NCBI GenBank assembly: GCA_964644075.1
Contig: CAZXUQ010000007.1
Span: forward strand, 35-64,034
DNA length: 64,000 nt
Direction: 5' to 3'
DNA from: an uncultured Candidatus Peribacteria bacterium
GTDB lineage: Bacteria; Patescibacteriota; Gracilibacteria; BD1-5; UBA2023
Notes under the pieces: generated by a model
Seen by the model: only the letters and a program-made list of their open reading frames with translations
Told to the model about the DNA's origin: nothing
The model's database searches: none
Position numbers and translations under genes: made by a program
Part shown: positions 1-64,000 of the stretch, in pieces
Layout of the letters: each line of letters begins with the position of its first letter
Numbering within the stretch: position 1 is the stretch's first letter

Positions 1-556
1 CCGTGATTTTTCGTATCTCTCCCTCTATGAGCATACCCTCGGCAGTCGATGGATCGATCCCGTGCGACGCAAGATAAAATATTGCATCAGAGGAGATACG
101 GTGGATACGACAGGAGTGACCTCACTCGATCGAGTCTGTGGCGACTTCGAGGACAGGACGACCACGTACACGAGCTCCTTCACCGAGGAGGATATTATTT
201 TGGTCGACACGCAGTTTCACATCACTCGATCCTGGAGCTACCCGCCCGATACCATCGATTTCGATATTTGACCCGTCTCATGCGAGAGCGAGAAGATCGA
301 GCGATCCATCAGCGCGACTCCCTTCGATCGAAACGGTCAATTCTAGAACCATATTTGCTCATGTAGCGACCGCGCCACCACGAAATACTGCACCCTCCTC
401 GACGATGAAATGACGGACGTACTTTCCATCATTTCTCGGGATAAGGACATATTTCTGACACTCTCATGCACTGATCCTGATCTCACGAAACTCGATGTCT
501 CCTTCATCGAGGACTGAGGCATGATGCGTATGTATTTTTGGATTTTCGCACTTCAT
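1..556 (-). CDS. sufD: SufB/SufD-family Fe-S cluster assembly protein; N-terminal ~185 codons, gene runs off the left edge
   Basis: Minus-strand frame from ATG (rc at 554-556) reads MKCENPKIHTHHASVLDEGDIEF...NNILLGEGARVRGRPVLEVATDSIEGGHSCRIHRISSDAIFYLASHGIDPSTAEGMLIEGEI. This matches the SufB/D C-terminal signature (xLEIxxDDVxxxHGxxxGxxxxxxxFYLxSRGI). Four in-frame TGA read as Gly. Confidence 0.7.
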
Positions 557-757
557 ATGGCGAAGTATAGAGAGACTCTACGAAATGGCAAAGAGAAATC
601 TTTGGAAAAAGTGAGAAATTTTGATAATATAGAGAAAGTTTCGGGTTTTCAGGGGTTTTTGAAGAATATCTATGAACTTAGTAGGGGTTTGGGGGAAGAA
701 ACTGTTTGAGGCAGATGAGAACAGAAAAAAGAAAGGCAGAGCGAGCGAGTTTTTCTT

Positions 758-817
758 CCACCGAAACTTTTGGATACTTTTGGTTACAAAAGTATCAGGA
801 AAGAGACACCGGATTTC
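758..817 (+). promoter_or_regulatory. Conserved ~60-nt element with a perfect 9-bp hairpin (GATACTTTT-GGTTAC-AAAAGTATC at 773-796), about 60 nt upstream of the T4CP-like gene; copy A
   Basis: The same hairpin and similar flanks recur at 43326-43384 upstream of trxB. In both copies the flanks are oriented relative to the downstream gene. Confidence 0.45.
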
Positions 818-853
818 TTTCCCGTTCTGCAACCAGACAGGCTCAGCCTCGCA

Positions 854-3253
854 ATGACAAAAATCATGAATAATAACCATAGTATCATCACCTACGAAGT
901 ATCCGTCGACCGCGCCAATGAAAAGGGCGTTTTCGTCGCCCGCGAGATGCTCTCGACTCTTCACCATGCGATCGAACACGCGAGTCCATGGTGGAAATTT
1001 TGGACAGAGAAAGTTCACCCAAGTTTTCGTTTCGAAATCGTCGCTCGAGACGGACAGATACGGTTCTTTTTTTCGACAGATCGGGCTTTTGCATCATTTC
1101 TCTCGAGCCAGCTCTACGCTCACTATAGCGATATCGAGCTCATAGAAGTCTCTCACTCACTCGACTCTGAGAAATCCTACAGAGCCAAGGAAGTCACGCT
1201 CGCACACCACTCACTCGAGACGATCAAGCTCTATGTAAATATGAAAGATCGTACTGAAAAAGAATCTGTCGATCCACTCTCATCCCTCACGAGTGCGCTC
1301 GCGAAAGTAGCGAAGTGAGATAGTGCTGGATACATCATAGATTTCTCTCCACTCGAAGATCATGTCTGGCGAACTGAGCACCGCGCGCATATCTGGTGAT
1401 GGCATCTCCCTCTGGGTATCAAGATGCAACTCCTTCACTTCTGGTGATCGATCGGATGGCTCATGCTCCCCATCTCATGGTCGTTTGCTCTCGTAGGATG
1501 GCTCATGCCGAGAGACCAACATGAGACCCATGATGATGAAAAACACGAAAAAGGAAAAGTAGAAACCAAAATAGATACATTCGGATATATGGCCCGTATT
1601 CTCGTGGTGAAGGAAAAGAGAGATGCCCTCAGTGATGAGGTCATGATAAAAGAACTCGCGAGTAGTATGAATATTTTTGCTAACCCAGGGGGCAATAGTT
1701 TCCTCATGAAAAAAACAAAACTTCTCATGAGGCTCCCCCCTATAAAAAAACTCCCAAAATCCTCGATGATCCTCTCGACGACAGAGCTCGCAGGCATCAT
1801 CCATATGCCGACACTCTACGTGAAAACTCCGGGCATCCACTGGGTGACGACACGAAAATTTGAACCACCACATGAGCTCCCGAGTACAGATGCCCCCAAT
1901 ACTCCGATCGGTATGGCGAACTACCGTGGTGGGAAAGAAGGTTTTGGACTCAAACCTATCGATCGCGCTCGACATGTCTATATCATCGGTAAGACCGGTA
2001 TGGGAAAGTCGACGCTTCTCGAAAACATGATCTATACAGATATCCTCAATGGTCGAGGTGTCGCTGTGATCGACCCACATGGGGACCTCGTCGAGACGAT
2101 CCTCGCCAATATTCCGAAGTCACGAACCAACGATATCGTCCTCTTTGATCCTGCCGACCAGGAGTATCCGATCGCGTTCAATATGCTCGAAAATAGTCGT
2201 CCCGAGCTTCGTCCGATCGTGGCTGGCGGACTGGTATCGATCTTTAAAAAAATGTTTGCCGAGAGCTGGGGACCACGTCTCGAGTACATACTCCGTAACA
2301 CTATCCTCACGCTCCTCCTCATCCCTGAGACGACGATGATTTCTATACCGCTCATGCTCACACATGAGGCCTATCGAAGGAAGGTCGTCTCGAAGATCGA
2401 TGATCCGATCCTCGTACAGTTCTGGAATGAAGAATTTGCCAAGATGAGTCCCTCGATGCAGAGCGAGGCGGTGAACCCGATTTTGAATAAAGTCGGGCAA
2501 TTTCTCTCTTCTCCAATCCTCAGAAATATCCTCGGTCAGCCGAAAAATCCCTTTTCTCTGCGATGGATCATGGACAATGGGAAGATCTTTCTCGTGAACC
2601 TTTCGAAGTGACGCATCGGTGAAGATGCCAGTGCACTCCTCTGATCGATGATGGTGACCAAGTTCCAGATCGAGGCGATGACCCGAGCTGATATCCCCGA
2701 GAGTGAGCGTCGAGATTTCGGACTCTATGTCGATGAGTTTCAGAACTTCGCCACTGACTCTTTCGCGACTATCCTCTCCGAGGCTCGTAAGTACAAACTC
2801 TCTCTCACCATGGCGAACCAATATGTCGAACAAATGGCAGAAACCGTACAGGGTGCAGTATTCGGAAATGTCGGATCACTCATCGCTTTCCAGGTAGGCT
2901 ATCATGATGCTGTCACGTTTGCTGAGGTATTTGGCGGGGAAGACGTGATCACTCCACAGGACCTCACCAACCTCCGAAAATACGATATCTATACGAAGCT
3001 TCTCATCGATGGTATGCCTTCGCCAGTATTCTCTGCGACGACGTATGCGCCACTGCGGGACCGTATCGATGTACCTCCACAGCAGACACGTGATGTCCTC
3101 ATGAAGGTTTCTCGAGAAAAATACACCAAGAAAAAAGACTTCGTCGAAAAAAAGATCTTCGACACTGTGGCGAAGATCCGAGAAGAAGAGAAAAAGTATC
3201 GAGAAGAGAAAGAGTCCCACAAAGAGAAGAAGAAAGAAGGAAAAAAGGAGTAG
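854..3253 (+). CDS. VirD4/TraD-type coupling-protein-like ATPase, paralog 1 (about 799 aa)
   Basis: Three same-frame ORF fragments (770-1318, 1463-2611, 2648-3253) joined only by TGA. Motifs: Walker A IIGKTGMGKST, DPHGDL, Walker B-like LYVDEFQNF, SEARKYKLSL, GNVGSLIAFQVG (TraG/TraD C-terminal-type module). Central hydrophobic segment and K/E-rich tail. ATG at 854 chosen; the TTG at 770 lies inside the upstream hairpin. Confidence 0.8.
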
Positions 3254-3259
3254 CAAACT

Positions 3260-3772
3260 TTAAGCTGGAGGATTCATAATATCTCTAACTACTTTTTTTG
3301 TTTCTTCTGCACTCCGTGCAAGTCTTACCTTATCACATATTCATTGAAAAAATATTATGAGGTTTTTATCGGAAACTAAGGTCTGATCTTTTTGTAACCA
3401 TACATATTTTCTGGTTTGTGTATCAATATAACCAAGGTCATACACTCCTGTAAGCAATGGATCTAGTAAGCGGAGTCCTATAATAGCAGCTATCTCATTA
3501 TGAGGGTTACATACTGGGTACTCATTTTCGATATGACGAAAGTATGAGTTGGATCATAAAGAGAGTGAAACAAACTTGGATGATCGTATATCTAGAAATG
3601 CTGCTTCGGATCATCTACTGATAACCCAGTAGTCATCTAGTTTATAAGTTTCTTCATCTATGGTTACATCTGGATAAAATCAAAAGATAACTTTTCTTTT
3701 CTCAGAAAAGTCTTTCGCTTCTTGAAGTTGTTCTTGTAAGATTTCAAAAGGATCCTTGATAAGAAGAGACAT
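3260..3772 (-). CDS. Hypothetical protein (170 aa)
   Basis: 170 codons without TAA/TAG in an AT-rich stretch, checked triplet by triplet, with 4 in-frame TGA. Begins MSLLIKDPFEILQEQLQEAKDF. No recognisable family. Invisible in the standard-code track. Confidence 0.5.
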
Positions 3773-3907
3773 GCGCGGTTTCTATATAAAAATAAGTTCG
3801 AATAACCTAATCATAACCTCTGTTTTGTCAAATTTTTTTCATACTATTCACTATCTGTCAATGACAGAATAGTTTTTGATTTCGAGAAAACTCCCTATAC
3901 TCCTCAG

Positions 3908-4079
3908 GCTCTCCATTCATGGTGGGGAGTGGTGGGCTTTTATATCCCCACCAACTTATTTTTCATTTTTATGAAAATAGTAGTTTCGCTCTCTGTTTGG
4001 AGAGTTCGATTTGCATTCGAGATTGTTCTCGGAAAGTAGATCGAAAAAATCCCCCTAAGTGGTACTATGGGGGATTTTT
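3908..4079 (+). ncRNA. Candidate small RNA, family copy 1 (paralog at 15208-15372)
   Basis: TATACT -10 box at 3896-3901. Nested helices CTCTCC...GGAGAG and GGTGGGGA...TCCCCACC, hairpins TTTTCATTTTTATGAAAA and TCGAGA-TTGT-TCTCGG. Intrinsic terminator ATCCCCC...GGGGGAT plus T-run at 4049-4079. The overlapping 80-aa ORF is not conserved in the paralog. Confidence 0.4.
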
Positions 4080-4157
4080 GATGGTGAGAAGCGATACGCT
4101 TTTATACCAACTTATTTGTCGTAGTTTCGTTCGACATGAGGATTATACCATATTTTC

Positions 4158-5192
4158 ATGAAAATCAAATTTTTCCTTCTCTCGAAAATTGCTTTTTTCC
4201 CTCTTTCTGCTAAAGTACAGAGTATAACTTTGTCTATGTTCAAACTCTTTCTCTCCATCCTAGCCCTCATACTCCCACTCGGAGCGACATTTGCTGCTAA
4301 CCCTACGACCGAGGAGCTCAATCTGAAAACTCCCACCATCAAAACACAGTGAGGTGAATCAGATGCACTCGCGACATTTATCGGACCTGTAGGTGAACTC
4401 TTTTTTATGCCGAGCTTGCGCGATGAGTCGGTGATCAATACATTTTTGAGTATTGCCTTTGCGCTCAAGAACTTTTTCATCGCTATTGCGGTGATATTTC
4501 TCATCATCGGAGTCCTCAAGCTCCTCTTCTCCTGGTGAGATGAGGAAGATATCAAAAAATGGCGGAGAAACATCATATGGACATCTGTGGGTATCGTCGT
4601 CATGCAGATAGCGACATCCGTCTGGCGCACGCTCTACCTCACTGAGTCTACCCAAAATATCGATGGTCGCCTCGGATGGCAGTTTTGGAGCAATATATTT
4701 GAGCCGCTCGTGAACCTCATGCTCATCGTGGCAGGATTTGGTTTCCTCCTCATGATGGTATATGCATTTTACATCATCGTGACGGGTGGTGGCGATGAGG
4801 AAAAACTCAAAAAATGAAAAAATATCGTGATCTACGCTGTGATCGGATTTCTCCTCATACGCATACCCCGTCTTTTTGTCATCGCTATCTACTGAGAACC
4901 GAAAGATGCCTGTAAAGACACGACTCTTTTCTCGATCGGTAACTGTATGATGTGAGAGAAAAAACTCGAGGGAGCTATCGGTATATTTGGAAAGATACTT
5001 TCTTTCGTCAATGGTTTCATCATGCTCATCACTGTAGCTCTCGTCATCTACGCAGGATGGCTCGTGCTCATCTCTGCCTGAGATGAGGAAAAACTCAAAA
5101 AAGCCAAAAATATTGCTCTCTATATCGTCGTCGGTCTCGTGCTCCTCGTCGCCTGACATGCTCTGTTTCGATTTTTTGTTCTCAGAGGGTAG
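4158..5192 (+). CDS. Membrane protein with three tandem VirB2/TrbC-like (T4SS pilin-type) repeats
   Basis: Same-frame fragments joined by TGA. Three helix / short acidic-basic loop / helix units: SGGDEEDIKKWRRNIIWTSVGIVVM, GGGDEEKLKKGKNIVIYAVIGFLL, SAGDEEKLKKAKNIALYIVVGLVLL. N-terminal signal-like MFKLFLSILALILPLGATFA (alternative start 4236). Confidence 0.65.
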
Positions 5193-5231
5193 AAGTTTGC
5201 TTTTTCCTCCTGTTTTCGATATACTCTACAC

Positions 5232-7661
5232 ATGACTGTGGGCGAGCTCATCTTCATTGTCCTGATGACTCTCACGATATCGTGAGTGGTCTATATTTCC
5301 ATGAGGAGAAAAATCGCTCTCAAGCGCTCTCTCGACATGACATTTTTGCGCGTCGTCATCGCTCGCAAGGACTCTGACGCTGATGAAAAAAAGGAAACAG
5401 TAAAAGATTTCCGAGAGCAAATATCGATCATGGAACAGCTCCTCGCGAGTCTCAAGTCACTCTACGCGAGTACGCTATCGGGTTGGCTTTTTGGTCAGGA
5501 ATATCTCTCTCTCGAGTATGTCGCCCATAAACAAGAGATTTATTTCTACATCGTCGTCCCGAAAAAAGCTCGCCTCCTCGTAGAAAAACAAATCATCGGT
5601 TTTTATCCTGATGCTTTCGTCGAGGAAACCCCAGAGATCAATATCTTCGAGGATCGAAGTACCATCGAGGGAGAGATCATGAAGCTCAAAAAAGCAGAAC
5701 AATTTCCGATACGTACCTACCAAAAACTCGAAAGTGATAGCATGAATGCGATCCTCTCTGCTCTCGGAAAGCTCTGAGAAGAAAACTCTGCTGCCATACA
5801 GATCCTCATGCGACCAGTAGATGATGACTGGCAGGAAAAAATCAAAAAACTCATCAGAAAAACTGAGAAAAAACACCATGGAAGTCACTTCTCGTGGAAC
5901 CCACTCGAGTGGATCGGCATACTGATCGACCTTTTTACTCGAGATCCGAGCGAAGAACGAGCAAAAGAAGAACCCAAAGATGACGAAGATCCGATCGATG
6001 ATGAAGGTCTCATGAAGGAAAAAGTGAAAAAAACAGGATATGCTACCACTATCCGCATCATCACGACATGACAGGATCGTGCAAGTGTCCATGCAGAACT
6101 CGAAAATATTATTTCATCTTTTTCCCAGTTTGCCTCCCCAGCGTATAACCGGTTCAAAGCTGTGAAAAGGAAATCTCTCTCTCTGCTCGTACACCACTAT
6201 ATATTTCGTCAGTTTGCCTGGTGGCAACACGCTCCGATCATGAACAGTGAGGAGATCGCCACGCTCTATCACTTCCCTGCGAGTAAATACAACCGACAAC
6301 CAGAGATCCGCTGGCAACGGTTCAAGCTCATAAAAGCACCTACGAATATCCCAAAAGAAGGTCTCTATATCGGGGATAATATTTTTCGTGGTGAGAAAAA
6401 ACCAATTTTCGTAAAAAATGAAGATCGTTTCCGACACTTCTACGTGATCGGACAGACAGGTACAGGAAAATCATCTATCCTCTCGACGATGATCCGTCAG
6501 GATCTGCGTGGTGAGAAATGACTCGCTGTCCTCGATCCACATGGTGATCTCGCTCGCGATACGCTGAACTTCATCCCGAAATCTCGTGCTGACGATCTCG
6601 TCTACTTTGACCCCGCTGACCTCTCTCGGCCGATGGGACTCAATATGCTCGAAGCGGTCAATGATGATGACAAACAGATGGTCGTCGCCGATGCGACCAA
6701 TATCATGATCAAGCTCTTTGGAAATGAGATATTTGGTCCGCGTATCCAGGACTACTTTCGAAACGGATGTCTTACACTCTTGGACTATCCACAGGGATGA
6801 GCCATCACAGATCTGATCCGTCTTTTTACCGATGATAACTTCCAGCGAGAGCGTCGTACCACTCTCAAAAACGCCGTCGTAAAAGCCTGGTGGGACTATA
6901 CCTATGCCAAGATGGGTGATCGAGAAAAGGGTGAAATCATCCCGTATTTCGCAGCGAAATTCGGTCAGTTCATCACCAATACACTCATGCGAAATATCGT
7001 GGGTCAGACAAAATCTGCCTTCGATATCACTGACATCATGAACAATGAGAAGATCCTCCTCGCAACTCTCTCGAAGTGAGTCCTCTGAGACCTCAACTCC
7101 AATCTCCTCGGTCTCATCCTCGTGTCAAAGATCCAGATCGCCGCCATGCGCCGACAAAATATGGCAAAAGAAGATCGAAAAGACTTTTTTCTCTATATCG
7201 ATGAATTCCAAAACTACGTCACTGACTCGATCGAGAGTATCCTCTCTGAGGCACGTAAATACCGTCTCGGTCTCGTGATAGCCCATCAGTACCTCGGCCA
7301 GCTCCAGAAATCCGATGCCCTCACTAAGTCGAACCTCAATCTAAAAGATGCGATATTCGGTAACGTGGGATCGATCATGAGTTACAAGATCGGACCCGAG
7401 GATGCCGAGATGATGGCGAAGCAGTTTGCTCCCGTCTACTCAGATCAGGACTTTATCAATATGGATAAATTTAAGGCAGCGCTCCAACTCTCAGTCGATG
7501 GACAACCAACGGCAGGGTTCTCACTCTCAGTCCCACTCCCGTGGCTTGAGAAATGAGATCCTACAACTGGAAATGCTCTCAAAGAACTCTCTCGACTCAA
7601 GTACGGTCGCGAGCGTGAGTTTGTCGAAAAAGAAATCATTTACCGCATCGGTGCCACATAG
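5232..7661 (+). CDS. VirD4/TraD-type coupling-protein-like ATPase, paralog 2 (about 809 aa)
   Basis: Fragments 5286-5777, 5808-6071, 6162-6521 and 7122-7556 share one frame and are joined by TGA. N-terminal TM helix. Motifs VIGQTGTGKSS, DPHGDL, GLNMLE, FLYIDEFQNY, SEARKYRLGL, GNVGSIMSYKIG. Confidence 0.8.
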
Positions 7662-7663
7662 AT

Positions 7664-8611
7664 ATGAAACGATTAGGATTTCTCTGCATCGCGTTGTTCC
7701 TGCCTTTCTCATGAGCATGGTCCGCTGACCTCACTGACGGGACAGCTTTTAGTGACTATCTAAGTAATGTCGACCTCTACTGCAAAAATCCGAACATGCC
7801 GTGGAATAAAGACGATCTCACTTTTTGAAAAATCACCGTCGACTATGCGCCTTTTTCTCCTGAACTACTCAAAAACACACAAAGTAAGCTCCTCTCGACA
7901 GAGACAGATGCTGGGGAAAAAAGTCGTATAGAAGCCTCTCTCCGAGCCATCAGTACATACGAGTGATATCGAGCTCTCGAGGTTGCTCGCATCACCTACC
8001 AGACTAATATGAATAAGATTTTCTCCTGTGCTGTGGTATCGAGTCGATATGAGAAAATTAATAAACTCATCGAGATTATTAAAAAAGCATTTTCATGAGA
8101 AAAATCCTCTGATATCCTCAAAAAAATAGAGAAAGAACGTCTTCGATACGATCGCCTGCGGACGACGATGAACTGTGGGCTCAATAGTGATGACTCAAGC
8201 TCATATCGCATCATGGATCGACTCAGTGCGAGTGCTACGACAGAGTACTGTAACTACCTCTACTATACGGACTACCTCAAGGCGCAGCTCGAGAATAATG
8301 CTTCCGAGACATCTCGTATCGATGCGGCTCTCGCAGGAAAAAGTGGCTCCCTGAGGACGACCGATCGGGCTCTATCGGTGCTGAGCTCTCGACAGCAATC
8401 GATCGAGCGGGACCTCGCACGTGCTACTGATACTCTCCCGAAAGCACTCGTAGCCTATCGTGAGATGGAACGTACGTATGCCCTCCACCTCGTCCTAGTA
8501 CTGATATATGATGACTATCTGAAGCTCAGAGATAATATTGATCTCTATCTCTCTGCAGTTTCTCAGCTTTTCGAGAAGGCATTCAATGCTCAGGATAAAA
8601 ACAATCGATAA
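7664..8611 (+). CDS. Secreted hypothetical protein (315 aa), translationally coupled to paralog 2
   Basis: Starts 3 nt after the preceding stop. Signal peptide MKRLGFLCIALFLPFSGAWSA. Helical, coiled-coil-like composition. 4 in-frame TGA. Confidence 0.6.
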
Positions 8612-9926: not shown

Positions 9927-10142
9927 AACTCTCAATTGGTTCAACTTCTCATATTTTTCCTTTTGCTTCTTTACTTTCGCGAATTTCTCCTATACCTGAT
10001 CGAAGATTTCCGTAATAAATCCGAAACTGCCTGACGAGCAACGCGAGGAGTTTTTCGGTTTTAGGAAATCGAGATCATAGGGATAACGAAATGAGCGAAC
10101 AAAAGAAGGACTTTTTGTTACTTTTTAGTCATAAAAAGTAGA

Positions 10143-10412
10143 GAAAAAAACAAAAAACCCACGACTGTGGGTACAGCGTGGGCTTAAAATGGGGTGCCGA
10201 ACGCTATACACTGTGAGGACATAAAAATTTGATCCTCGGGTAAACGGACGGTCAGTTGGTTTGGGATGAACTCAATCCCTATTCTCACGAGGAGAATAGC
10301 TCAACTGACCTTTCGGCGTGATTATTTAAAGCGTACTACCATGCCGCTTTTTGCCCAGTGCCGGGCTCATATCCTATCTCCTATGAGAAATACGATATGA
10401 GCCCTTCACCAG
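10143..10412 (-). ncRNA. Candidate structured RNA of unknown class, with intrinsic terminator
   Basis: On the minus strand: 11-bp hairpin GGGCTCATATC...GATATGAGCCC; a 9-bp helix GGTCAGTTG...CAACTGACC enclosing two hairpins (TATTCTC/GAGAATA and GGGAT/ATCCC); then terminator ACCCAC-AGTC-GTGGGT followed by a T-run (rc of 10143-10172). Sits in about 1 kb with no convincing ORF under either code. 5' end not defined. I could not match RNase P, tmRNA, SRP or 6S signatures. Confidence 0.35.
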
Positions 10413-10932
10413 TGTTTTTGATTCTTTCTGTATCATTTGTACAAAAATTGCTCTTTTTGTGTATTGATATGAAATTGGTGAATCTTTGTTTTGGTATTTG
10501 TAGCAGGAAGATCCTGTGAGAGCAGGGTTCCTATTATCAGTCAGTCGAGTCTTGTTAAGGGTCAATCTCTTGCGAGATGACACAGGTAGTATATCAGTTT
10601 TTTTCTAAGAGAGCGAGTCACTCGAGCTTGTCTATTTCAGAGAGAAATGTAATACTATATTTTCATCTCGGGGTTTCCTCTCTGTGATCATAAAACACCC
10701 TTTCTCTATTTTTCGGACAGTTATTGAACCATTTCTGTATAAATATTGTGTATTTGTATAGTATGTGTATACATCTTTTCCTTTCTATAGAGAGAAAAAT
10801 TCATCTATTTCGCCCGAAAAAATATCAAAAAATTCCTCTCCATCCTGTGAAATGTGAGAGGAACACTATATCTAGTGGTATGCTGTATTTTTCCTTTTCC
10901 TTGAGAGGAAAACTTGATCATTTGGTCGAGTT

Positions 10933-11649
10933 TTAAAGATGCTCGAGGGCAAAAGTCATGACGACACCCGCAGTCTCCGTACGGAGCACTCGCTCTCAAA
11001 AACGAGCAAATATAAAACCATTTTCTTTCATTTTTTTACGTTCATTTTCACTCCATCCACCCTCTGGCCCTACCCAGATGCCGATCTCACGATTTATGGG
11101 CATTTTTGTGAGTTTTAGGAGGGTTCCTGTGGTATCGAGGACGATATGTTGTGTTTGGTTGGGTTCTATGACTCGTCATGGGGTCGCCTCGATAGCAGTT
11201 CCTTCGAAAAATTCTATTTCTGGCATGACCATGCCACCACACTGCTCGAGAGCTTCCCGAGCAATCGAGAGGAATCGTGCTTTCTTATTTTCTGAGAGTA
11301 TGAGCTTTTGTGAGTGCTCCGATCGGAAGAAAACAAATCGTTTCACTCCGACTTCGACACCCTTTTCGAGGATGTATTCGATCTTTTCCATCTTGTTTGG
11401 GAGAGCCTGATAGAGCGTAATATCGCGATCTCACTCCGTTTTTGGAAAGCTTCTTCCTTTTCATTTGAGTGAAACTGACTTCTTGGTGATATGTGTGATC
11501 GTGTAGGTATACTCACTTCCATCACCGTCAAAGAGGACAATATCCTCACCTGGAGCCACTCGCATAACACGAGTAAGTTGGTGAACGATGTCAGTATCAG
11601 TGAGTTCGAGATCGATCGTAAGCGGGAATGTGACGTAAAATCGTTGCAT
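10933..11649 (-). CDS. rsmE: 16S rRNA (uracil1498-N3)-methyltransferase RsmE
   Basis: MQRFYV...VHQLTRVMRV..GEDIVLFDGDG N-terminus and C-terminal IGIWVGPEGGWSENE...ERVLRTETAG motif. Fragments 11461-11649 and 11176-11391 joined by TGA. Confidence 0.85.
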
Positions 11650-11742
11650 ATTTCTAAGGATAAGTTGTCATGCTGACGAAGGAAGCATCTGCTCAGGAAC
11701 AGGGCAGATTTCTTGTTCCTCGGAATGACAAACAGAGTAAAT

Positions 11743-12267: not shown

Positions 12268-12470
12268 AAGGAAAGTATAGAGAAAAAGTTAAATTTTCAA
12301 ACTTTTGTCATCCCGTAGGGATCTCTTTCAATATCACCTCATTCCCATATGTCAGATATGGTTTTTGTAAGAAAAAAAAACAGATTTTCACAATCCCATG
12401 CAAATAAGCAAAAGAAAGGGCGACTCCTTTGCTTCACTACGGAACGACAAAAAAAATTTCTTAGAACCAA

Positions 12471-44659: not shown

Positions 44660-44697
44660 AGCGACACTATATCGAGATTTTCTTTTTTGTCATGTTT

Positions 44698-51570: not shown

Positions 51571-51584
51571 TATTTCTTTTCCCT

Positions 51585-53558
51585 ATGGCGGTACCCTCTC
51601 TCGCAGATCTCGTAAAAATAAACTACACTGGCGATGTCGAATGACTCGAATCAGGAGTAGTGAATTTCGTCGGCTCAGATGGTATCTCTCAGGGTGCCTC
51701 TCTTGCCAACCCTGCTGATATCACACCACTTCCTCCTCCTTCGCCAGTTTCGCCAACTTCGACACCTTCGCCAAAAATCCCACTCGATCTCGATGATCCT
51801 GACCGCAAGCTCACCAAAGAAGAAGCTCTCGAACTCAAAGAAGCAGAAAAAGAATATAAAGAAGCTCTCGCCTACGTCAAAGACATGATCGCTCCTGCGA
51901 TGATGCGCATTGACGCGACCAAACTCCAGATCGGAGATACCTATGTACGTACGATCTTTACCTATGCCTATCCTGATGTTCTCGAGTGAAATTGGCTCTC
52001 ACCGCTCATCAACTGGGATGTGAAGTGTGATGTGTCGATGTTTATCTATCCAGTAGACTCTGCTCGAGTCATGCGCTACCTCCGTAAGCGTCTCACCCAG
52101 CTACGGTCTCAGTACTCGATCAACCGTGAGAAATGACTCATCTCTGATCCGCACCTCGATGCGCAGATGCAAGATGTCGAAGAACTCCAGGTATCACTCA
52201 CGCGTGGTCAGGAGAAATATTTCCACTTCTCACTCTATATCACGACGTATGCAGAGAGTGAAGAGGAGATGAAGCGACTCTCCAATACCCTCGATGTCAT
52301 GCTCGCAGGACGAAACATCCTCACAAAGCAGGCATTTCTGCGTGCTGAGCAAGGATTTGTCGCGACGGGTCCATTTGCTCGAGACGAGGTCAATGTATTT
52401 CGAAATATTTCGACGAAGGGGCTCTCGACGACATTTCCATTTTCCTCGAATTCACTCTCTCAGGATGATGGGATATTCTACGGGATCAATACGCACAATA
52501 ACTCTCTCATCATCTTCGATCGGTTCAAGACAGAAAATGCAAATATGTGTGTCTTCGCGAAGTCAGGATGAGGAAAGTCGTTTGCTGTAAAACTCGAAAT
52601 CCTGCGCGCTCTCATGCTCGGAACGGATGTGATCGTCCTCGATCCAGAAAATGAGTACCGCGCCCTCGTCGATACAGTCGGTGGAACCTACCTCAATATC
52701 AATCTCAACTCAGATGAACGTATCAATCCGTTCGACCTCCCACGATCACTCAAAGATACCGACACACATCCTGGAGATCTGCTACGAGGTGCTGTGGTGA
52801 ATATGATCGGTCTCCTTCACCTCATGCTCGGTGAGATCACGCCAGGTGAAGAGGCGATCCTCGAACGCGCCCTCATCACGACCTACTCGCTCAAAGGGAT
52901 CACGATGGAAGATGACTCGATCGAAAACAAAGAAATCCCACTTATGAAAGATTTCGTCTCCGTCCTCGAGACGATGGATGGTGCGAAGGGCCTCGTCGAG
53001 CGCCTTGATAAATATGTAAATGGAGTGTTTGCCTGAGTGTTCTCTCAGTCGACCAATGTCGATCTCAAGGAAGGCCTCGTCGTCTTCTCAGTACGTGATC
53101 TCGATGAGATCCTCCGACCGATCGCTATGTACATCCTCCTCAACTATGTATGGAACGTCGCTCGTTCGAGTGAAAAAAAGCGAATGCTTGTCGTGGATGA
53201 AGCGTGGAATATTATGCAGTATGAGGACTCAGCAAAATTCCTCTTCGGACTCGTGAAACGTGCTCGTAAGTATGGACTCGGTGTCACGACGATCACACAG
53301 GATGTCGAGGATTTCATGCAGAACCAATATGGAAAAGCTATCGTGACGAACTCATCGATCCAACTGCTCCTCAAACAATCACCAGCCTCTATCGATATCC
53401 TGCAGGATATATTTAAGCTTACCGAACAAGAAAAATATATCCTCCTCAATGCCTCTGTCGGTACAGGACTCTTTTTTGCCTGAGGAGAACATGTGGGTAT
53501 CCAGATCCTCGCATCGTATTTCGAAGAGAAGATCATCACGACCAAGCCAGCAGTATAG
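51585..53558 (+). CDS. virB4: VirB4/TraC/CagE-type type IV secretion ATPase
   Basis: Four same-frame fragments joined by TGA. Walker A VFAKSGG(TGA)GKSFAVK, VVLDPENEY, Walker B MLVVDEAWNIM, RKYGLGVTTITQDVEDF, LLLKQSP. Proline-rich N-terminal linker. Confidence 0.85.
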
Positions 53559-53680: not shown

Positions 53681-54343
53681 ATGAAATCTCTCGTCTCCCT
53701 CCTTGCCCTCGTCTCCCTCACTACCCTCACCCTCAGTGCCTCCCTCGTCTCTGCTTCTCAGATCGGTACCGGTACCGTTGTCGGAAGTGGTGCCCTCACA
53801 GCTCCAATTAACTGGAACGATACATTCGTCTCTTCCTCTGCCTCTGGTAGTATCAATGGTATCGTCGTCACAGGTCGTATCCTCCCAACACTCAATATGA
53901 CGATTTCTGGATCTGGTACGATCGCTCTCGGTAACCTCTCCAGTGCAGCAGCTTCTACTGGTTCAGTCAGTATCGAAATCGGTACAAATGCTATCAATGG
54001 AGCCTCAGTAACAGCACGTTCTACGAACGCTGGTATGACCAATACCTCTTCTGGTGCTATCGTTATCAACAGCCTTTCTGCAGATGGATTTGCAGATAGC
54101 TATAAATTCGTATCATCAGCAGCAGCCACAGACTCTACTGCTCCTGGATTCTCTCAGACAGCAGCACTCAATACAGAAGTCAACAACAACACTACCAACC
54201 ATGCAGTCTATAGCTGTACTCGTCCTCAGCCACTCACTGGTGTCGATGACATCACTTTCTCTGTCGTCGCACAACCAAATGCACAGACTCCAGCAGGGGA
54301 TTACCGAGATGTTGTCGTTATTACGGTAAGTGGGAACTTCTAA
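53681..54343 (+). CDS. Small secreted Ser/Thr/Ala-rich beta-type protein (possible fibre or pilin-like subunit)
   Basis: Signal peptide MKSLVSLLALVSLTTLTLSASLVSA. C-terminal AGDYRDVVVITVSGNF resembles the terminal strand of fimbrial/SCPU-type subunits. No TGA and no sorting signal. Confidence 0.55.
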   Translation: MKSLVSLLALVSLTTLTLSASLVSASQIGTGTVVGSGALTAPINWNDTFVSSSASGSINGIVVTGRILPTLNMTISGSGTIALGNLSSAAASTGSVSIEIGTNAINGASVTARSTNAGMTNTSSGAIVINSLSADGFADSYKFVSSAAATDSTAPGFSQTAALNTEVNNNTTNHAVYSCTRPQPLTGVDDITFSVVAQPNAQTPAGDYRDVVVITVSGNF

Positions 54344-54438: not shown

Positions 54439-57400
54439 ATGTCTTCTCTTACGCAAAAATCTCTCTCTGGACTTCTCGCCTTTGTCCTCAGCTTCGAGTC
54501 GATCATCTCGATCGCTCTTATTTCATCTGTCTCACTTGCGAGTGTAGAGACGACATTTGCTACCCCGAGCTCCTACTCGAAAAAAGCCTATCTCCAGGTA
54601 GCACCGAGCACACTATGAGCGAGTCTCGATCCATCGACAGGGAACTGGTATATGGATACTCCGACTTCCTCAGTCTCTTCTGGTCAGACATACCGATATG
54701 TCCTCGATATGTCGAGCGCGAGTGATGATATGCCGAACTATGATGTCGCGGTCAGTGACTATCTCGCACTCGGGCATACTGGTGTGACTTCACCACGCGT
54801 TCCGACAGCATCGGGATGGGCAGTTCTCGGTACTCCGACTGTCGGCACTCCGACAACGATCGCAAGCTGGACACATGCGAGTGGAGCGGTGCGAAATGTC
54901 ACAGACTCATGAGTACTTCAGTGGGTCGGTGGGCAAAATAAACAAGCTGGAAACCTGAGCGTCACGACACCACATCAAGCAAATCCCCTTACTCTTACGG
55001 GTATCCAGTCTCTTGCAGGACTTGACTCGAGCACGACCGATGGGTTCACCTCTCAGACACTCATAAACGGAAGTGGTGATGTAGTGATCTTTTCCGTCAG
55101 CCATAATAATAGTATCCTCATCCGAGCCGCTAATATGACGAATGGTGTCTATACATCGACACCTTTTCTTTCCGGAACTGGATATACATCGGAAAATAAT
55201 GGCATCATCCTCCAAGATACGACCAATAGGGACAAAATATATATCCTTAGACATGACAATGTATACACCTGTTATGACATTTCTCGAAACCCTTCTCATG
55301 CAGTTACAACTTGTACTCCAGCGACGTTCACTGTCTCTCCTGTCTCATTCTCTCCTCGCACAAGTAGTGGAGCGTGGCTCCCTTCCTCTACAGCTTTCGC
55401 GATCGTCGCAGACCGACTCTATGCCTGAGTTCTCGGCACTGATGGAGATACCTACTTGACTTGTACGACGACAGCATGATCTCACTGTGGTGAGTGGCGT
55501 GTCGGTACGGGGACAGATTTTGGGACATCGTTTCATAAACACTCGACACAGCTCACGACCGAGAAATTTGCTTTCGCACTTTCGAATGGACTCCAATACT
55601 GTATCCGAGAAGTCGCATCTGGGTCACTCGCTCTCTGTGATGGAACAGCACTTCCACCGACTGGAGCGGATATCACATCTTTCGCGAGAAATATAGGAAC
55701 AGCGGGAGGACTTTTTTACCCGCCTCCAGGAGATCCTGTAAGACTCGGATGGACGGTCTTTCCTCGCGTCGAAAACGGAAGCACGACGGGATACTGTTAT
55801 AGTGACAAGACAGCATCATATATCGGGAATGCTTCTGTCTGTCGAGATCTTTCGGATGCCCTGGTTCCGACCGATAGTCCTGCGGGTCCAAACTTCCACA
55901 ACGTCGTCTGAGTGATCCCATGAAGCTCTCGTGTTCTCATCAACCATAGTTCCACTTCAGGATATTTCGGTCCTCTTCCGACGTGTTATGACTTCTCTAC
56001 TCATAGTACTTGTGGAAATACAGTCAACTGGAGACAAGACGAATATGGAGGATCATTTATCTCACCGACCTGTTATGTCACGATGGATGATGGTGCTGCT
56101 TATGGAAATATCAGCTCGTTTGCTCTCTATCGGTACTCGACTGGAGCAGTAGGAGAGCCACTCATGACGAGACTCGGTACTCCTATCGGGACACTTACGG
56201 GCGAACTCTACCACAATGGTTCTGGGTATTTGCCAACAGGAAATATGGTAACCAACGAATATAGCTACTCTCAGTCTGATGTCGATGCATGTAACGCAGG
56301 ATGAGCTCTCGATATCCCCGATCCAAGTCCGACGACTACTACCGTTACCGTCAAAACCCAAGATCCTCTCGGCGTCAATACCTGTGCTCCTGGTCCTGAG
56401 ACGATAAGTTGGGATATGCTTACCATCAGTGCGTTGCCTCTAGGATATACGAGTGCCACAGGAACCATCCTGGATATGAGTGGAAATATTATCGTCGAAT
56501 ATTCATTTTCTCCACTGACAGGACTCACCCAAAATATCACTGCCCAAGTACCCTATGCGAGTTACCCACAGTTTCAGGTGCGACTCGATATCCTCGGAAC
56601 AGGCAGTAGCCTCTCAGGAACGATCATCGCTCTTACTCACACATCGAGTAAGTGAGGTCCTCAGATTTGTTATGATGCGACGGTTACTCAGGCGATGTGT
56701 GACACTCCTCACCCTGTCTCATCTGGTCCACTTGACCCTCTCGATCCGTGGATCGGATCTGGTACCTGGAGTCCAAATATGTTTCGCAGTGTGAGCTCCT
56801 TCAGCGGACTCACAACAAGCACACCGATCATCCTCACTTCTGATGGGACCACTCCAGTATGAGTATCGTGTGCTCCTGTAGAAGTCGGCGGCAATCTCTG
56901 GTACGATGCCGACCACGATGGTATCCAGGATGCGAGTGAGATATTTTTCTCTGGTGCTGCTATCCGCCTCCTCGATCCTCTCGGAAATACGGTCGCGAGT
57001 GGTACAACTGACGCGAGCGGTGGGTATCTGTTTTCCAATATTTCTGGGACCAATACTCTATCAAATATCTACAACCTCTTCCTCCCATCGAGTGCGACGG
57101 GATATAGTATCGTGATCGATAACAGCGCCTGGGCATCTACAGGAGTACTCTTTGGATATACTCCGACCTCATCTCTTCAGTGAGGTGACCGGACTCTCGA
57201 CTCCGACCTCACCACGCTTTCTGGGGGAGTGATGGGTACACCTCTCACGCTTCCCGCCGCTGGGTCATCGGATCTCACGTATGATTTCTGAGTATTTCCC
57301 GATATCGAAATCGGAGATCGTGTCTGGAACGACATCAATGCAAATGGGATCCAGGATGGTGGGGAAAATAGTATCATGAACGCGACGGTAGAACTCCTCG

Positions 57401-60400
57401 ATGCGAGCGGTGCTGTGATCGCCTCAGCTCTGACAGATGGATTTGGAAACTATACTTTCACATCCAATGCCATGACAGGATCGACACCATCCTTCGTCAG
57501 TAACCTCCCTCTCGAGCTCGCAGGATCGTACTTTGTGTGACTTGCGGCTTCGAATTTCACTCCATGAAATACCCTCGATACCGCTATGGGCTGGACTGTC
57601 AGTCCAGGATCGAGATGAGGGAACTCTACTCTCGACTCAGATGCTGATATCACTCTCCCGACCAATTCTCCATCTCTTGGCTATACGACTATGGTGCTTC
57701 ATCCGTTTGGTTTTGCGACGGGAAGTGGACGATATCTCCTTCATGATATCGATTTCGGAGCATATCTCGGTTTCGACATTTCTCTTAAAAAATATATCGA
57801 TACTGTTGCTCCATCCTCAGATGCAGATACGAGCGGAAGTGGTGTGTATGAGGGCCTTGGAAGTGCCCTGACCTATATCATCCGCGTATCCAATCTCGGA
57901 CCTGGTCAGACCCACGGAGAAACCGTCGTCACTGATACGCTCCCGAGTGGAGTCACGATGACGAGTCTCCCGAGTGGATCAGGATGGTCATGTAACGCCA
58001 GTGGTGCTGACATCACGTGTCGATCGACAGATATAGTCCTCGGAAGTAGTGCCTATAGTGACATCTCTATCCCCGTCACCGTCACTGCGAAAGATGCTAT
58101 CCTCACCAATACTGCCCTCGCAACCAATCTCGAAGAACTCCCAGGACAAACATCGAATAACACTGATCCTGCTGTATCTCTCGTTGTACCAGTTATCATC
58201 GGAGACCGCGTCTGGAACGACACTAACCGAAATGGTATACAGGACAGTGGAGAAACTGGTATCCCTCTCGTCCACGTCTCTCTCCTCGATGCGAGTGGTG
58301 CTGTCGTCGCGACTGCGGTCACGAACGTCAGTGGTGTCTACACCTTTTCGAGTGAGTCTGGATCGACGAGTCCAGATGGTTCCTATGTGCGAAATGCACC
58401 AATCATCCCATGAGCAAACTATACGATCTCCCTCGATGCTTCGAACTTCACGAGCGGGACACTTTCTGGCAGCTACCGACCGAGTCCTACAGGCGCGGGT
58501 ACTCCGACGACCGACTCTGATGGTCAGCCGACCGCGACCCCAGGTACCACTGGTGTAAATTCACTATCGTTTTCTGCGCCTCCTGTGACAGCGCTCGCGA
58601 GTGCACGTACGGATACGAGCCGAGATTTCGGATTGTACCAGGATTTCGATATGCGCGTGACGAAGTATATGAGCATCTTCTCATGAGCCCTCCAGGACGC
58701 GAACTCTCCAGCGACGAGTTCAGGAGATGTAAATAGTCTCTGATATGGAGATACATTTCTCTATACCGTCCGTGTTACCAACCTCGGACCTGGCCCACTC
58801 CTCGGCACGACGTACGTCTCTGATACGCTCCCGAATGGAGTCACACTCGATCCGAGCTTCGTTGCTCCAAGTGGATGGAGCTGTAGTGTCAGCGGACAAA
58901 ATATCCTCTGTAACACTGCGACCGGAGCTCTCTCTGGTGCGAGCCTCACAGATATCGTCTTCCCAGTCCATGTCACGCTCACCGATGCTGTCGGTGCACA
59001 GAGTCTCACCAACACCGTCTCGGTATCCAATAGTGCTGAAATCTCGATCGCTCACAATCCTGCAAACACTGGTAACCCGAGCAATCCTGGAAACCCAAGT
59101 GATCCAAATGCTCCGAACCCGAGCACGCCCGAGTGACAAAATAACACTGATACCGCAGTCGTAAGTATCTATCCTGTGACTGTCTGAGACCGTGTCTGGA
59201 ACGACGCAAATCGAAATGGTATACAGGACAGTGGAGAAAGTGGGATTGCCTCTGTCGTGATCGATCTTTCTCTCTCTGGTACGACGATCGCGAGCGCGAC
59301 GACCGATGCTTCATGAGCATTTCTCTTCTCGAGTGCGACGGGAGTGAGCACGACATCTCGCGTCTATGGTATGCTCTTTGCGCCGAGTGCGACGGGGTAT
59401 ACATTCTCCCTTCGTCCATCGAACTTCCTCTCTGGGTGAGTCCTCTACGGTCTCATGCCGACGACGGCTCTCGCATGATCAGATCGTACTCTCGACTCCA
59501 ATCTCACTACCCTCTCGACGATCGCTCTCACTCTCCCTGCGCACGGAGGGGTCGATATGTCGTATGATGCAGGACTCATGACTCCACCTCCAGTACCGTC
59601 GACACCGACTTCATGACCAGGTGGCGGACCATGACCAACGTATGTTCCACCGACGACCTCGACACCTCCATCGACGTCCCAATTCCAGCAACCATTTGTT
59701 CCGATCGGTGTACAGACAATATTCCAACAGACTCCTCATACTCCAGAGAAATCTCCTCGTATCGAAGCGTTCCCAAGCCTCGAACACTATCCATACGGAC
59801 CAGCAGGAGATCAGTCTCTCCTTCCGAACGACCGAGTGAATGGAACTCTTGCGACAGTAAAAAATGTCACGGTAAAGCTTCTCGATAATGGTGGTATCAA
59901 AGGTCTCACGCTCGATCCAAAAACAGGAAAAATCCTCTTTCCTCCGAAAACGGCTCCAGGAAAGTATACTGTCTCATATGCGATCACCGATGTCTCCGAT
60001 CCAAGCAATACAGCCGAGTCGGTCGCTGTCATCATCATCGATCGTGCGAAGCCGACATTTGTCCTTCCGAAAAAACTTCTCGACACGGGGACTCCGATCG
60101 CCAAAAAATGAATTCGCATCATAGCGAACTTCCTCGTCGCGACGAAAGCGATGTTCCCGTCGGCATATGGATTTGCTCATGTCGGAGACGCTCCTCGTGA
60201 TATCGCTTTCTGGAAAAAACACCTCTCCGAAACACTCGGAGGCAAGTACCAAGAAAAAGATAATAATGCCAAAACGTACATCGTCGTGCCATCGATCGGT
60301 ATCGTCACCCCTGTCTATGATATCCTCGATAGCAGTGAGAAGTCGAGCCAAAAAGATTTCGATACTCTCGTCTCATGAGGCGAAATTAAGGTCAATCCAT

Positions 60401-60774
60401 ATCTCCATGACGGTGTCGTCCACTACCCACGATCAGCCAGTGCTGGCGAAGTCGGGAATATGGTCGTCGCAGGACACTCATCCTACTGGAACCGTGATGC
60501 AGGACGCTATAAGACCGTGTTCGGGAACCTGATGGAGCTCGATGCTGGTGAGGAAGTCTGGGTCTACACACAGAGCTCCACAGAGAAATCAGGCTACGCC
60601 CTCCATCGCTATCGTGTCACTGCCTCATACAACACTGATCCGACCAATGTCAGTGTTCTCCTCCCCGATGGAGACAAAAAGATCATCACCCTCTTTACCT
60701 GTACTCCAGTTGGTGGACTCTCGGGTAGATGGATCGTGAGAGGGGAGCTCGTAGAAGAAAATAAGGAAAGTTAG
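54439..60774 (+). CDS. Giant surface adhesin (SdrD-B/Cna-B-like and DUF11 repeats) continuing in frame into a sortase domain (2111 codons, no TAA/TAG)
   Basis: All listed fragments between 54652 and 60774 share frame 1. My manual translation finds only TGA between them. Signal/TM N-terminus, Cys-rich N-terminal region, four GDRVWND.N.NGIQD..E.G repeats, two DUF11-like units ([12 protein letters not shown]..., [12 protein letters not shown]...), Pro-rich stalk, LLDTG at 60076-60090, TGA at 60109-60111, then [18 protein letters not shown] and sortase motifs [22 protein letters not shown]. Confidence 0.75.
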
Positions 60775-63078: not shown

Positions 63079-63164
63079 TCTGAGCTCCTTACATTTTTTT
63101 GTAATGAAAACTTGCAAAAAACGAATATTCGCTATACTTGGCGAGTATTCTTTTTTCATTTCTT

Positions 63165-63728
63165 ATGATAACTGCTCTCAAAGCTCGTACTGGTACAGTA
63201 CTCAAAATCGACTGAGGACTCTTCCTCGTGGTCAGACATGAAATGCGTCGTGGTGGACGTGGAGCAACAAACGTGGCTGTACGACTCAAAAACCTCATGC
63301 AAAATGGTATGGCTGATAAGGTCCTCGACTCAGAGGAAAAACTCGAAGATGTTATCCTCGAGCGTGCTAAGGCAGAGTATTTATACTCTTCAGGAGACAC
63401 GTATTCATTTATGAACCAGGAGACGTATGAAACCGTCGACCTCCATGAGGATGATGTCGGTGATGCTGCAATGTATCTCACTGAGGGTGTCGTCGTGGAT
63501 CTCCAGACATTTGAGGGAAAATTTATCGGTATCATCCTCCCACTCAAGGTTACTCTGAAGGTTGTCGAAGCTGAGCCAGCCGTCGCAGGAAATACCGCTG
63601 ATGGTAAGGTTGATAAAGTAGTAAAACTCGAAACAGGTCTCGAGATGCGCGTCCCAGGATTTGTAAACCAAGATGAGTCGATCGTTATCAATACAGAAAC
63701 TGGAGAATATCTCGAACGAGCAAAATAA
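63165..63728 (+). CDS. efp: Elongation factor P
   Basis: MITALKARTGTVLKIDG(TGA)GLFLVV...GRGATNVAVRLKNLMQNG...ETGLEMRVPGFVNQDESIVINTETGEYLERAK is typical EF-P. Confidence 0.93.
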
Positions 63729-63732
63729 TATC

Positions 63733-63760
63733 ATCCCCCGAGAAATCGGGGGATTTTTTT
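63733..63760 (+). terminator. Intrinsic terminator after efp
   Basis: ATCCCCCG-AGAAAT-CGGGGGAT plus a T-run. Confidence 0.75.
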
Positions 63761-63818
63761 AACGATTCACTCAAAGCAATAAAAAATCCTACTCTTTCGA
63801 ATAGGATTTGATTTTTTC

Positions 63819-63902
63819 TGGTGCCCAGAAGAGGACTTGAACCTCCACACCTTACGGCATACGCACCTCAAACGTACGTGTCTACCATTCCACCACCTGG
63901 GC
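63819..63902 (-). tRNA. tRNA-Leu (anticodon GAG), class II, CCA encoded
   Basis: Reverse complement GCCCAGGTGGTGGAATGGTAGACACGTACGTTTGAGGTGCGTA...GGTTCAAGTCCTCTTCTGGGCACCA. Anticodon loop TTGAGGT. Confidence 0.85.
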
Positions 63903-64000
63903 AAGCAAACGCAGTTTGCGAGATACACATACAGAAGACAGATACAGAAAGGATTTTTTTTACATGTTTCTGAGGTAAAAACATCTCCGATGTGTTTGTG

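Follow-up and report, generated by a model that had tools for sequence, protein, structure and literature searches.

The DNA considered here, hereafter the window, is a 64-kb stretch (44.8% GC) from an uncultured bacterium recorded as Candidatus Peribacteria, an organism found in wastewater, activated-sludge, and freshwater metagenomes. Our subject is the heptamer TTCGMCA (M = A or C; TGKCGAA when read on the other strand), which an original prediction, made by reading the letters alone, had singled out as over-represented and possibly akin to an uptake signal. TGA is a sense codon in this genome: open reading frames (ORFs) become about three times as long when TGA is not treated as a stop, and 128 of the 176 outgroup UvrA residues aligned with TGA are Gly and none is Trp, so that the code is table 25, as the prediction had supposed.

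The gene calls made for this analysis comprise 38 genes covering 90% of the window. Pfam matches support ComEC (Competence domain), a ComF-like protein, ComM, the UvrA context, TrxB, and a VirB4-like ATPase, in agreement with the competence genes predicted earlier; the TsaB-like gene has no Pfam match and owes its name to identification by eye. Also encoded in the window is a type IV secretion system (T4SS), represented by a pilin, by VirB4, and by three VirD4/TrwB-like coupling ATPases. Its genes form two groups (410-8611 and 47202-53558), whose members include the paralogous VirD4/TrwB-like ATPases g01, g03, and g31, the VirB4-like ATPase g33, and g02, a protein with two T4SS_pilin domains. 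The pilus-like machinery of the original prediction is thus a T4SS with a pilin rather than a type IV pilus. Within the 64 kb there is neither a ComEA nor a type IV pilus nor any ComP-like receptor; no methyltransferase gene was recognized among the proteins of the window, and no nuclease gene is evident there. Rfam and tRNA scans of the window returned only four tRNAs, which bear no relation to the motif.

TTCGMCA is a DNA-level word arranged in tandem

Exact counting on both strands gives 46 copies of TTCGCCA (22 forward, 24 reverse) and 50 of TTCGACA (23 forward, 27 reverse), where about 40 of each had been estimated by eye; the corresponding estimates of about 10 and 5 for the sister heptamers TTCGTCA and TTCGGCA were close to the 13 and 5 present. 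The full set of 96 copies, spread over positions 1-64000 (45 forward, 51 reverse), amounts to about 1.5 per kb, lies more than 90% within genes, and is of mixed orientation in each 8-kb bin. Repeated DNA inside the giant gene g24 supplies just five of the 96, which excludes internal gene repeats as a source of inflated counts.

We compared these counts with two expectations: a codon null, in which synonymous codons are shuffled within each gene so that the protein sequence and per-gene codon usage stay fixed, and a junction null, which additionally preserves the dinucleotides at codon junctions. Under the codon null, TTCGCCA is expected 12.3 times (z 12.4, rank 1 of 8,192 heptamers) and TTCGACA 18.7 times (z 9.0, rank 3); under the junction null, the expectations are 17.4 and 24.5 (z 10.4 and 6.3), again with ranks 1 and 3. 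The excess therefore remains under the synonymous shuffling that the original prediction had proposed as a check. Nor is it shared equally by unrelated TCGA-containing heptamers, the outcome that had been named as telling against a DNA-level motif: TTCGTCA and TTCGGCA stand at expectation under the shuffles, and other TCGA-rich words such as CTCTCGA leave the top ranks under the junction null. One-mismatch neighbours of TTCGCCA in the window are all near or below expectation save TTCGACA, which is itself less sharply bounded, ATCGACA and CTCGACA being raised too. TTCGCCA is enriched 2.3-7-fold in all six frame/orientation classes and TTCGACA in three of the six.

The motif is also in excess outside genes, as a comparison of intergenic with coding DNA, likewise suggested earlier, makes apparent. 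Pooling the eight motif-positive loci described below (184 kb, the window included), nominal non-coding DNA (33% GC) holds 14 copies against 2.4 expected, of which about 7-9 are left once uncalled genes are removed. The other 299 of the 313 pooled copies are coding, at 1-2 per kb and in a sense:antisense ratio of 118:181. In the same pool, TGTCGAA (195 copies, 80 expected) and TGGCGAA (118 copies, 44 expected) are the top two heptamers, with z of about 17, and the next-ranked words all overlap them.

The main alternative foreseen at the outset, that the motif is a by-product of codon usage, dicodon bias, amino-acid repeats, or base composition, is rejected as very improbable in light of these results. 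It draws on real properties of the genome, which favours NTC codons and TC/GA dinucleotides (observed/expected 1.41) and over-represents TCGA 2.9-fold; the TTCGACA excess is partly common to ATCGACA and CTCGACA, and arrays of spacing 9 match tripeptide repeats. However, the ranks are kept under both nulls, the excess extends to both strands, every frame, and intergenic DNA, and the codons that the motif uses are minor ones (TCG has a 15% share among Ser codons, GGC 8% among Gly codons, and GCG 20% among Ala codons), codon usage outside the motif being alike in motif-rich and motif-poor genes. The motif is moreover absent in code-25 relatives of similar GC and present in relatives at 33% GC, and 23 tandem pairs whose spacing is 10 or 11 run across reading frames. 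Codon pairs that are reverse complements of each other are enriched jointly, which fits a DNA-level rather than a translational cause. TTCGMCA is thus a DNA-level word, presumably one of recognition, and no by-product of translation; it occupies synonymous positions and in places shows in the choice of amino acid.

The core of the word is 7 bp long; its first position tolerates A and its seventh is strict. On the 5' side, isolated copies have a slight bias toward W at -3 and against G at -2 and A at -1, and flank analysis of the copies found zero information on the 3' side. A C at -4 was rejected as part of the word, since it merely echoes tandem copies lying upstream. Roughly 35% of copies are preceded, 9-12 bp upstream, by another copy or a near-copy. 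Among close pairs (22 bp or less apart, pooled loci), 85 have the same orientation and 13 the opposite one. Same-orientation spacings peak at 9 (26 pairs), 10 (11 pairs), 11 (12 pairs), 18 (6 pairs), 21 (14 pairs), and about 30-33 bp. The window itself contains 15 arrays, with 21 inter-copy gaps of 13 bp or less where about 1.9 are expected, which bears out the pairs spaced 1-4 nt apart that had been noticed by eye.

The pairing goes well beyond what chance filling of sites would give. With an expectation calculated from per-gene fill rates and from what the proteins permit, 48 of the 67 protein-permitted same-direction pairs 9-11 bp apart are fully present, against 10.4 expected. The opportunities themselves are more frequent, making up 5.1% of sites in motif-positive and 1.7% in motif-negative genomes. 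A single 7-mer carries about 13 bits and occurs at roughly 0.1-0.4 per kb in unrelated DNA; a phased pair carries about 26 bits and occurs about once per 3.8 kb in the pooled motif-positive DNA. What is favoured, then, is a tandem pair or array whose copies run head to tail with a period of 9-11 bp, about one helical turn. Inverted pairs of the terminator type are rare: opposite orientations account for the 13 close pairs above, and the one perfect inverted repeat is intragenic.

Four-copy arrays are found in comEC (21804-21839, forward; spacings 9, 9, and 11), where the array encodes F-D-N-F-D-N-F-D-T-L-S-P, and in the Ser/Pro/Thr-rich linker of the VirB4-like g33 (51740-51773, forward; spacing 9 throughout), and trxB carries a three-copy array (43017-43044, forward; spacings 10 and 11). 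The comF-like gene holds a cluster of about eight copies at 31382-31586, including a tandem pair at spacing 9 (31382-31397, forward), a divergent pair at spacing 8 (31421-31435), and a tandem pair at spacing 10 that crosses reading frames (31549-31565, reverse). In uvrA, a tandem pair at spacing 10 (32364-32380, reverse) encodes V-S-K-F-G-E, and three copies in the order forward, reverse, reverse (32426-32451; spacings 8 and 11) include the palindromic TTCGACA-G-TGTCGAA. The giant surface-protein gene g24 has tandem pairs at spacing 9 at 35243-35258 (reverse; S-T-T-S-T) and 35876-35891 (reverse), together with a convergent pair at spacing 12 in an internally repeated domain (40010-40028). A tandem pair at spacing 13 (2811-2830, reverse) and a convergent pair at spacing 10 (3158-3174) lie in g01, the T4SS coupling-protein-like ATPase, and the sufC-like g10, a gene on the reverse strand, contains a forward tandem pair at spacing 10 (14128-14144). 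Finally, four copies lie at 44277-44330 in the TsaB-like gene (reverse strand), as a tandem pair (44277-44292), an inverted repeat (44286-44308), and a further copy at 44324. That inverted repeat, a perfect 11-bp one of the form TTCGACATGTC-T-GACATGTCGAA, is made of two motif copies, and since it sits inside the TsaB-like coding sequence it is no terminator.

The trxB, tsaB, comF, and virB4 examples of the original prediction lie where it had placed them. Two others are real but were misplaced: the V-S-K-F-G-E pair had been put at 32345-32361, and the 16-mer TTCGCCAACTTCGACA, which indeed occurs twice in the window, starts at 44277 and 51749 instead of 44267 and 51753. Such coordinate errors are few and amount to 4-20 bases.

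Distribution among relatives, genes, and orthologous sites

We applied the same pipeline to 160 UvrA-anchored loci from genome and metagenome collections, of which the metagenome scan contributed three close relatives only. As the original prediction had suggested, comparison with related genomes is informative: seven related code-25 Gracilibacteria loci (L001, L002, L007, L081, L082, L011, and L108; 33-45% GC, all positive loci being independent assemblies) show the same signal, with the motif at or near top rank. To express its abundance independently of protein content, we refer to opportunity sites, places where the amino-acid sequence permits the heptamer through synonymous codons alone. 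The eight code-25 loci, window included, fill 17-46% of these, against a median of 1.8% elsewhere; nine other code-25 Gracilibacteria loci fill 1.4-6%, and the signal was not found in about 130 loci from other bacteria. L081 and L082 are at 33-34% GC yet hold 1-2.2 copies per kb.

On a neighbour-joining tree of UvrA, the positives form a clade (the window, L001, L002, L108, L081, and L082) and a separate pair (L007 and L011), with flank preferences that vary slightly between the groups; among the loci compared, the motif is thus restricted to one clade of code-25 Gracilibacteria and a second, separate pair of genomes. We note in this connection that six metagenome-assembled genomes (MAGs) are labelled Candidatus Peribacteria in their records (L001, L005, L007, L019, L027, and L029). 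By gene calls, TGA is sense in L001, L005, L007, and L027, and in L019 and L029 the code seems to be the standard one; L001 and L007 group with Gracilibacteria on the UvrA tree, and their labels look wrong.

Within the window, 18.8% of 224 TTCGCCA and 16.3% of 283 TTCGACA opportunity sites are filled, and nine control neighbour words fill 1-7% of theirs. The filled sites are concentrated in certain genes. Motif-rich ones (filled/possible) are uvrA (15/34), the comF-like gene (7/13), comEC (5/11), trxB (5/15), g24 (15/49), the VirB4-like g33 (6/19), and g01 (9/31); motif-poor ones are g35 (2/68), g36 (0/23), g11 (1/28), the RNase Y gene (0/11), and g31 (2/25). Outside the motif codons, codon usage is identical in rich and poor genes, so that the division between them is not accounted for by a codon bias linked to expression. 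Similar proteins may fall on opposite sides of this division. The coupling ATPase g01 is rich (29%) and its paralogues g03 and g31 are poor (8-9%), and of the two giant repeat-rich surface proteins, g24 (34811-41731, reverse; 2,306 aa) is rich and g35 (54439-60774, forward; 2,111 aa) nearly motif-free, TGA usage being normal in both.

Some preferences recur across genomes. UvrA is rich in each positive genome (27-44%), ComEC, ComF, and ComM are rich in both the window and L001, and in the non-syntenic L007 the richest genes are those of a RadA-type protein (8/13, 62%) and UvrB (8/15, 53%), both Pfam-confirmed. Pooled and summed by hand, the genes for DNA maintenance and competence have 130 of their 387 sites filled (33.6%), compared with 154 of 956 (16.1%) for other genes. 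This is suggestive of a functional bias toward maintenance and competence genes, but not of an exclusive one: a strict bias to genome-maintenance genes proved only partly true, TrxB being always rich and GlyA and PepA rich in L081. In known uptake systems, too, Findlay and Redfield found the density of uptake sequences to be only weakly linked to function (PMC2817400).

Individual copies tend to recur at orthologous positions. At the opportunity sites common to both genomes, the probability of a copy in L001 is 0.67 where the window has one and 0.12 where it does not (Fisher p 4e-7); the corresponding values are 0.73 and 0.05 in L002 (p 5e-5), and 0.38 and 0.13 in L081 (p 0.049). Where amino acids are identical, codon identity is likewise higher at motif positions than elsewhere (0.76 versus 0.50 in L001, 0.73 versus 0.46 in L002, and 0.65 versus 0.40 in L081), with no such excess in comparisons with the motif-negative L003 or L006. 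Synonymous sites are saturated at these distances, yet the copies are retained. The array TGTCGAA-N4-TGKCGAA-N3-TGGCGAA of trxB offers an illustrative example: it occupies the same codons in the window, L001, L002, and L081, its spacers vary freely, and its middle copy alternates among genomes between TGGCGAA (Ala) and TGTCGAA (Ser), leaving the motif unchanged. The same exchange is visible over a shorter time in uvrA, where a T>G substitution at 32366 in a strain about 6% divergent turns TGTCGAA into TGGCGAA and Ser into Ala; of 13 copies compared with this strain, 10 are intact, one has switched form in this way, and two are lost. The phylogenetic footprint is modest, with an identity of about 0.65 in the motif and about 0.58 in its flanks.

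Known systems and possible roles

In many respects TTCGMCA resembles the DNA uptake sequences (DUS) of Neisseriaceae and the uptake signal sequences (USS) of Pasteurellaceae. Like these, it is a short word present at about one copy per kb in both orientations, in every frame, and in intergenic DNA; it appears clade-specific with small flank differences, is maintained across relatives, shapes peptide content, and is abundant in several genome-maintenance genes of an organism that encodes competence genes (for DUS/USS features, see PMC3630211, PMC2817400, and PMC2397512). It differs in being shorter and degenerate (a 7-mer of about 13 bits) and enriched 3-4-fold only, in having as its unit a same-orientation tandem pair with a period of 9-11 bp, in its very uneven spread among genes, and, compared with the Neisseria-type DUS, in being almost without inverted terminator-type pairs. 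The host differs as well, being a code-25 member of the Patescibacteria with a T4SS and, within the window, no ComP-type receptor.

A second parallel is HIP1 (highly iterated palindrome 1, GCGATCGC) of cyanobacteria, which is also hyper-abundant, frame-independent, without gene-level function, and conserved at orthologous sites in a manner implying that selection keeps it (PMC5861425). HIP1 has lately been linked to transformation, which it is reported to improve (bioRxiv 10.1101/2024.09.10.611283), and to T4SS genes, with which its abundance correlates (bioRxiv 10.64898/2026.06.24.733823). HIP1 is, however, a palindromic octamer, enriched 15-300-fold, with known cognate orphan methyltransferases, whereas TTCGMCA is asymmetric, weaker, and tandem, and no methyltransferase is known for it. 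Chi and the FtsK-orienting polar sequences (KOPS) share with TTCGMCA the character of an over-represented 5-8 bp oligomer and are read by a DNA-processing machine as a mark of its own chromosome, as TTCGMCA may be, but are strongly skewed to one replication strand where TTCGMCA is balanced. The layout of the array has a counterpart in the direct repeats of PhoB, OmpR, and WalR boxes, in which 6-7 bp repeats with a short spacer follow one another head to tail, the period being 10-11 bp; those boxes, however, are few promoter sites per regulon, and TTCGMCA reaches something like a thousand copies per Mb or more, of which nearly all are in coding sequence. TTCGMCA thus joins the hyper-abundant genomic recognition words DUS, USS, and HIP1, from which it is distinct in the lineage of its host and in an architecture that is tandem and helically phased.

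The role that we consider most likely, while putting it at somewhat less than an even chance, is that of a self-recognition tag for DNA uptake or recombination among relatives. Import of DNA by Patescibacteria (the candidate phyla radiation, or CPR) is thought to serve mainly as a source of nucleotides. Saccharibacteria are naturally competent (PMC10633639). We know of no CPR lineage for which self-DNA marking has been reported; our literature search found no report of uptake sequences or of such a motif in Gracilibacteria. We favour an uptake role because the overall profile fits DUS/USS and the emerging view of HIP1, because competence and T4SS genes are present in the window, and because T4SS genes adjoin comF, recG, and radA in another class of Patescibacteria (PMC12102498). 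The strand symmetry, the density of 1-2 copies per kb, the apparent clade restriction, the maintenance across genomes, and the high motif content of UvrA, UvrB, RadA, ComM, ComEC, and ComF are all in its favour.

The phasing of the pairs leads us to infer a sequence-specific protein that binds adjacent copies cooperatively on the same side of the helix. As a mark of self, one 7-mer would be weak, but a phased pair would hardly occur outside these genomes, which might, speculatively, explain why pairs are favoured. In an uptake role, fragments bearing the tag would be bound, imported, or recombined preferentially, and tag-bearing alleles would then spread and be kept where the proteins tolerate them. 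Candidate machinery would comprise ComEC, the ComF-like protein, and ComM, together with the T4SS of the window. A more specific version is possible, if doubtful: the phased arrays may be a signal of species-selective DNA import or recombination, read by a head-to-tail oligomerizing receptor linked to competence or the T4SS.

Several observations weigh against an uptake role. The motif exceeds the codon-aware null by a factor of only 3-4 and the expectation from base composition by a factor of about 6, and canonical USS and DUS are enriched by orders of magnitude. To our knowledge, close same-orientation tandem arrays, which dominate here, are no feature of classical DUS or USS; inverted pairs are few, and the word carries about 13 bits of information. 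The spread among genes is very uneven, and the genome-maintenance bias is not exclusive, given that TrxB and VirB4 are consistently rich as well and that GlyA and PepA are rich in L081 and poor in the window. Motif-negative lineages stand between the two positive groups on the single-gene UvrA tree, and the 64-kb window yielded no candidate for a receptor, be it ComEA or a DNA-binding pilin. Turnover is high: in 143 comparisons of a window copy with its counterpart position in a relative, the copy is retained in 29%, one base off in 13%, and lost in 58%, and in the strain about 6% divergent, 4 of 63 substitutions fall at motif positions, where about 5 are expected. With substitutions about as frequent there as elsewhere, the constraint on a single copy appears weak, which fits a balance of gain and loss.

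That same turnover, with its weak per-site constraint over short timescales, would suit a HIP1-like selfish or repair drive, in which a sequence-specific methyltransferase, nicking endonuclease, biased mismatch repair, or gene conversion goes on turning near-matches into TTCGMCA and uptake plays no part. The profile matches that of HIP1 (hyper-abundant, frame-independent, conserved, and of unknown function; PMC5861425, PMC4390886), and one-mismatch neighbours at positions 6 and 7 are down to 0.34-0.68 of expectation, as if converted. We nevertheless think such a drive unlikely. Deamination products are not consistently depleted (TTTGCCA stands at 1.44 and TTCACCA at 1.05 of expectation), which leaves very short patch (VSP)-type repair unsupported; from a repair bias acting at single sites one would not foresee the filling of 72% of the phased pairs that are possible, nor does it predict a conserved gene-to-gene heterogeneity at equal background codon usage. 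The motif is also non-palindromic, and the window offers no evident methyltransferase or nuclease gene.

The filling of pairs speaks for arrays that bind an intracellular, head-to-tail oligomerizing protein (nucleoid-organizing, winged-helix, or of the response-regulator type) with a part in chromosome structure or in gene-local functions. The same-orientation peaks at 9-11, 18-22, and about 30-33 bp suggest helical phasing, members of a pair are filled together far above independence, the trxB triple array stands at exactly the same position in four genomes, and a 7-bp repeat with a 3-4-bp spacer resembles boxes of the PhoB/OmpR/WalR type. A density of 1-2 copies per kb, nearly all coding, is however far above that of any known regulon; the motif-rich gene set shifts among relatives (GlyA, PepA), contrary to gene-specific regulation; and there is no known case of a nucleoid protein through which coding sequence came under selection for a 7-mer. 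On balance, this explanation too seems improbable to us. A polar motif of the Chi/KOPS type, guiding RecBCD/AddAB or an FtsK-like translocase, has in its favour the 7-mer length, the over-representation, a density within the known Chi range, and three FtsK/VirD4-like ATPases in the window, but tandem arrays are no feature of Chi or KOPS and strand skew is absent both in the window, where the direction of replication is not known, and in the pooled loci, and we reject it as having hardly any chance of being correct.

Should the reading of the phased arrays as an import or recombination signal be true, TTCGMCA would be the first uptake-signal system in the Patescibacteria, with a new architecture in which cooperative direct repeats take the place of one long word. 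A clade-specific word that is maintained and also read cooperatively would imply selective exchange among relatives, or else another genome-wide DNA-protein system, in very small episymbiotic genomes, and phased arrays placed on donor DNA might raise transformation in genetically intractable hosts, as reported for HIP1. The motif also alters protein sequences, as seen in the Ala/Ser switches and in the three-fold surplus of positions at which the protein would allow a tandem pair. The analysis also illustrates that codon-aware nulls can recover weak DNA-level signals from one 64-kb window.

Other features of the window

Two genes of the window contain no TGA (Gly) codons at all: g11, which encodes a 1,009-aa surface-layer-like protein (15542-18571, reverse), and g34, which encodes a 220-aa secreted protein (53681-54343, forward). 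Other genes have one TGA per 50-100 codons or so; g11 and g34 are also motif-poor, and their lack of TGA may reflect high expression or recent acquisition. Three called ORFs, g07, g08, and g28 (9927-12318 and 44399-44701), have low coding scores and odd composition, g28 overlapping the TsaB-like gene on the opposite strand, and are probably spurious. Downstream of the tRNA cluster, the region at 9.9-12.3 kb may be degraded or may not code for protein.

Other short words depart from expectation as well. GAWTC, the TfiI-type site, is much depleted, GAATC standing at 0.37 and GATTC at 0.24 of expectation, with GACTC and GAGTC over-represented (2.0 and 1.5), and CTAG (0.14), TTAA (0.17), GGCC (0.19), and CCGG (0.17) are also rare, a pattern of depletion that suggests restriction-site avoidance. 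At the other extreme, ACCAATA/TATTGGT is the second most enriched heptamer of the window, with 27 copies against 5.7-8.7 expected, found on both strands and in many unrelated genes (for example at 2817, 31069, 33634, and 53323). L007, L081, and L011 carry it at a similar density (0.3-0.44 per kb), and in L001 it is rare (0.09 per kb).

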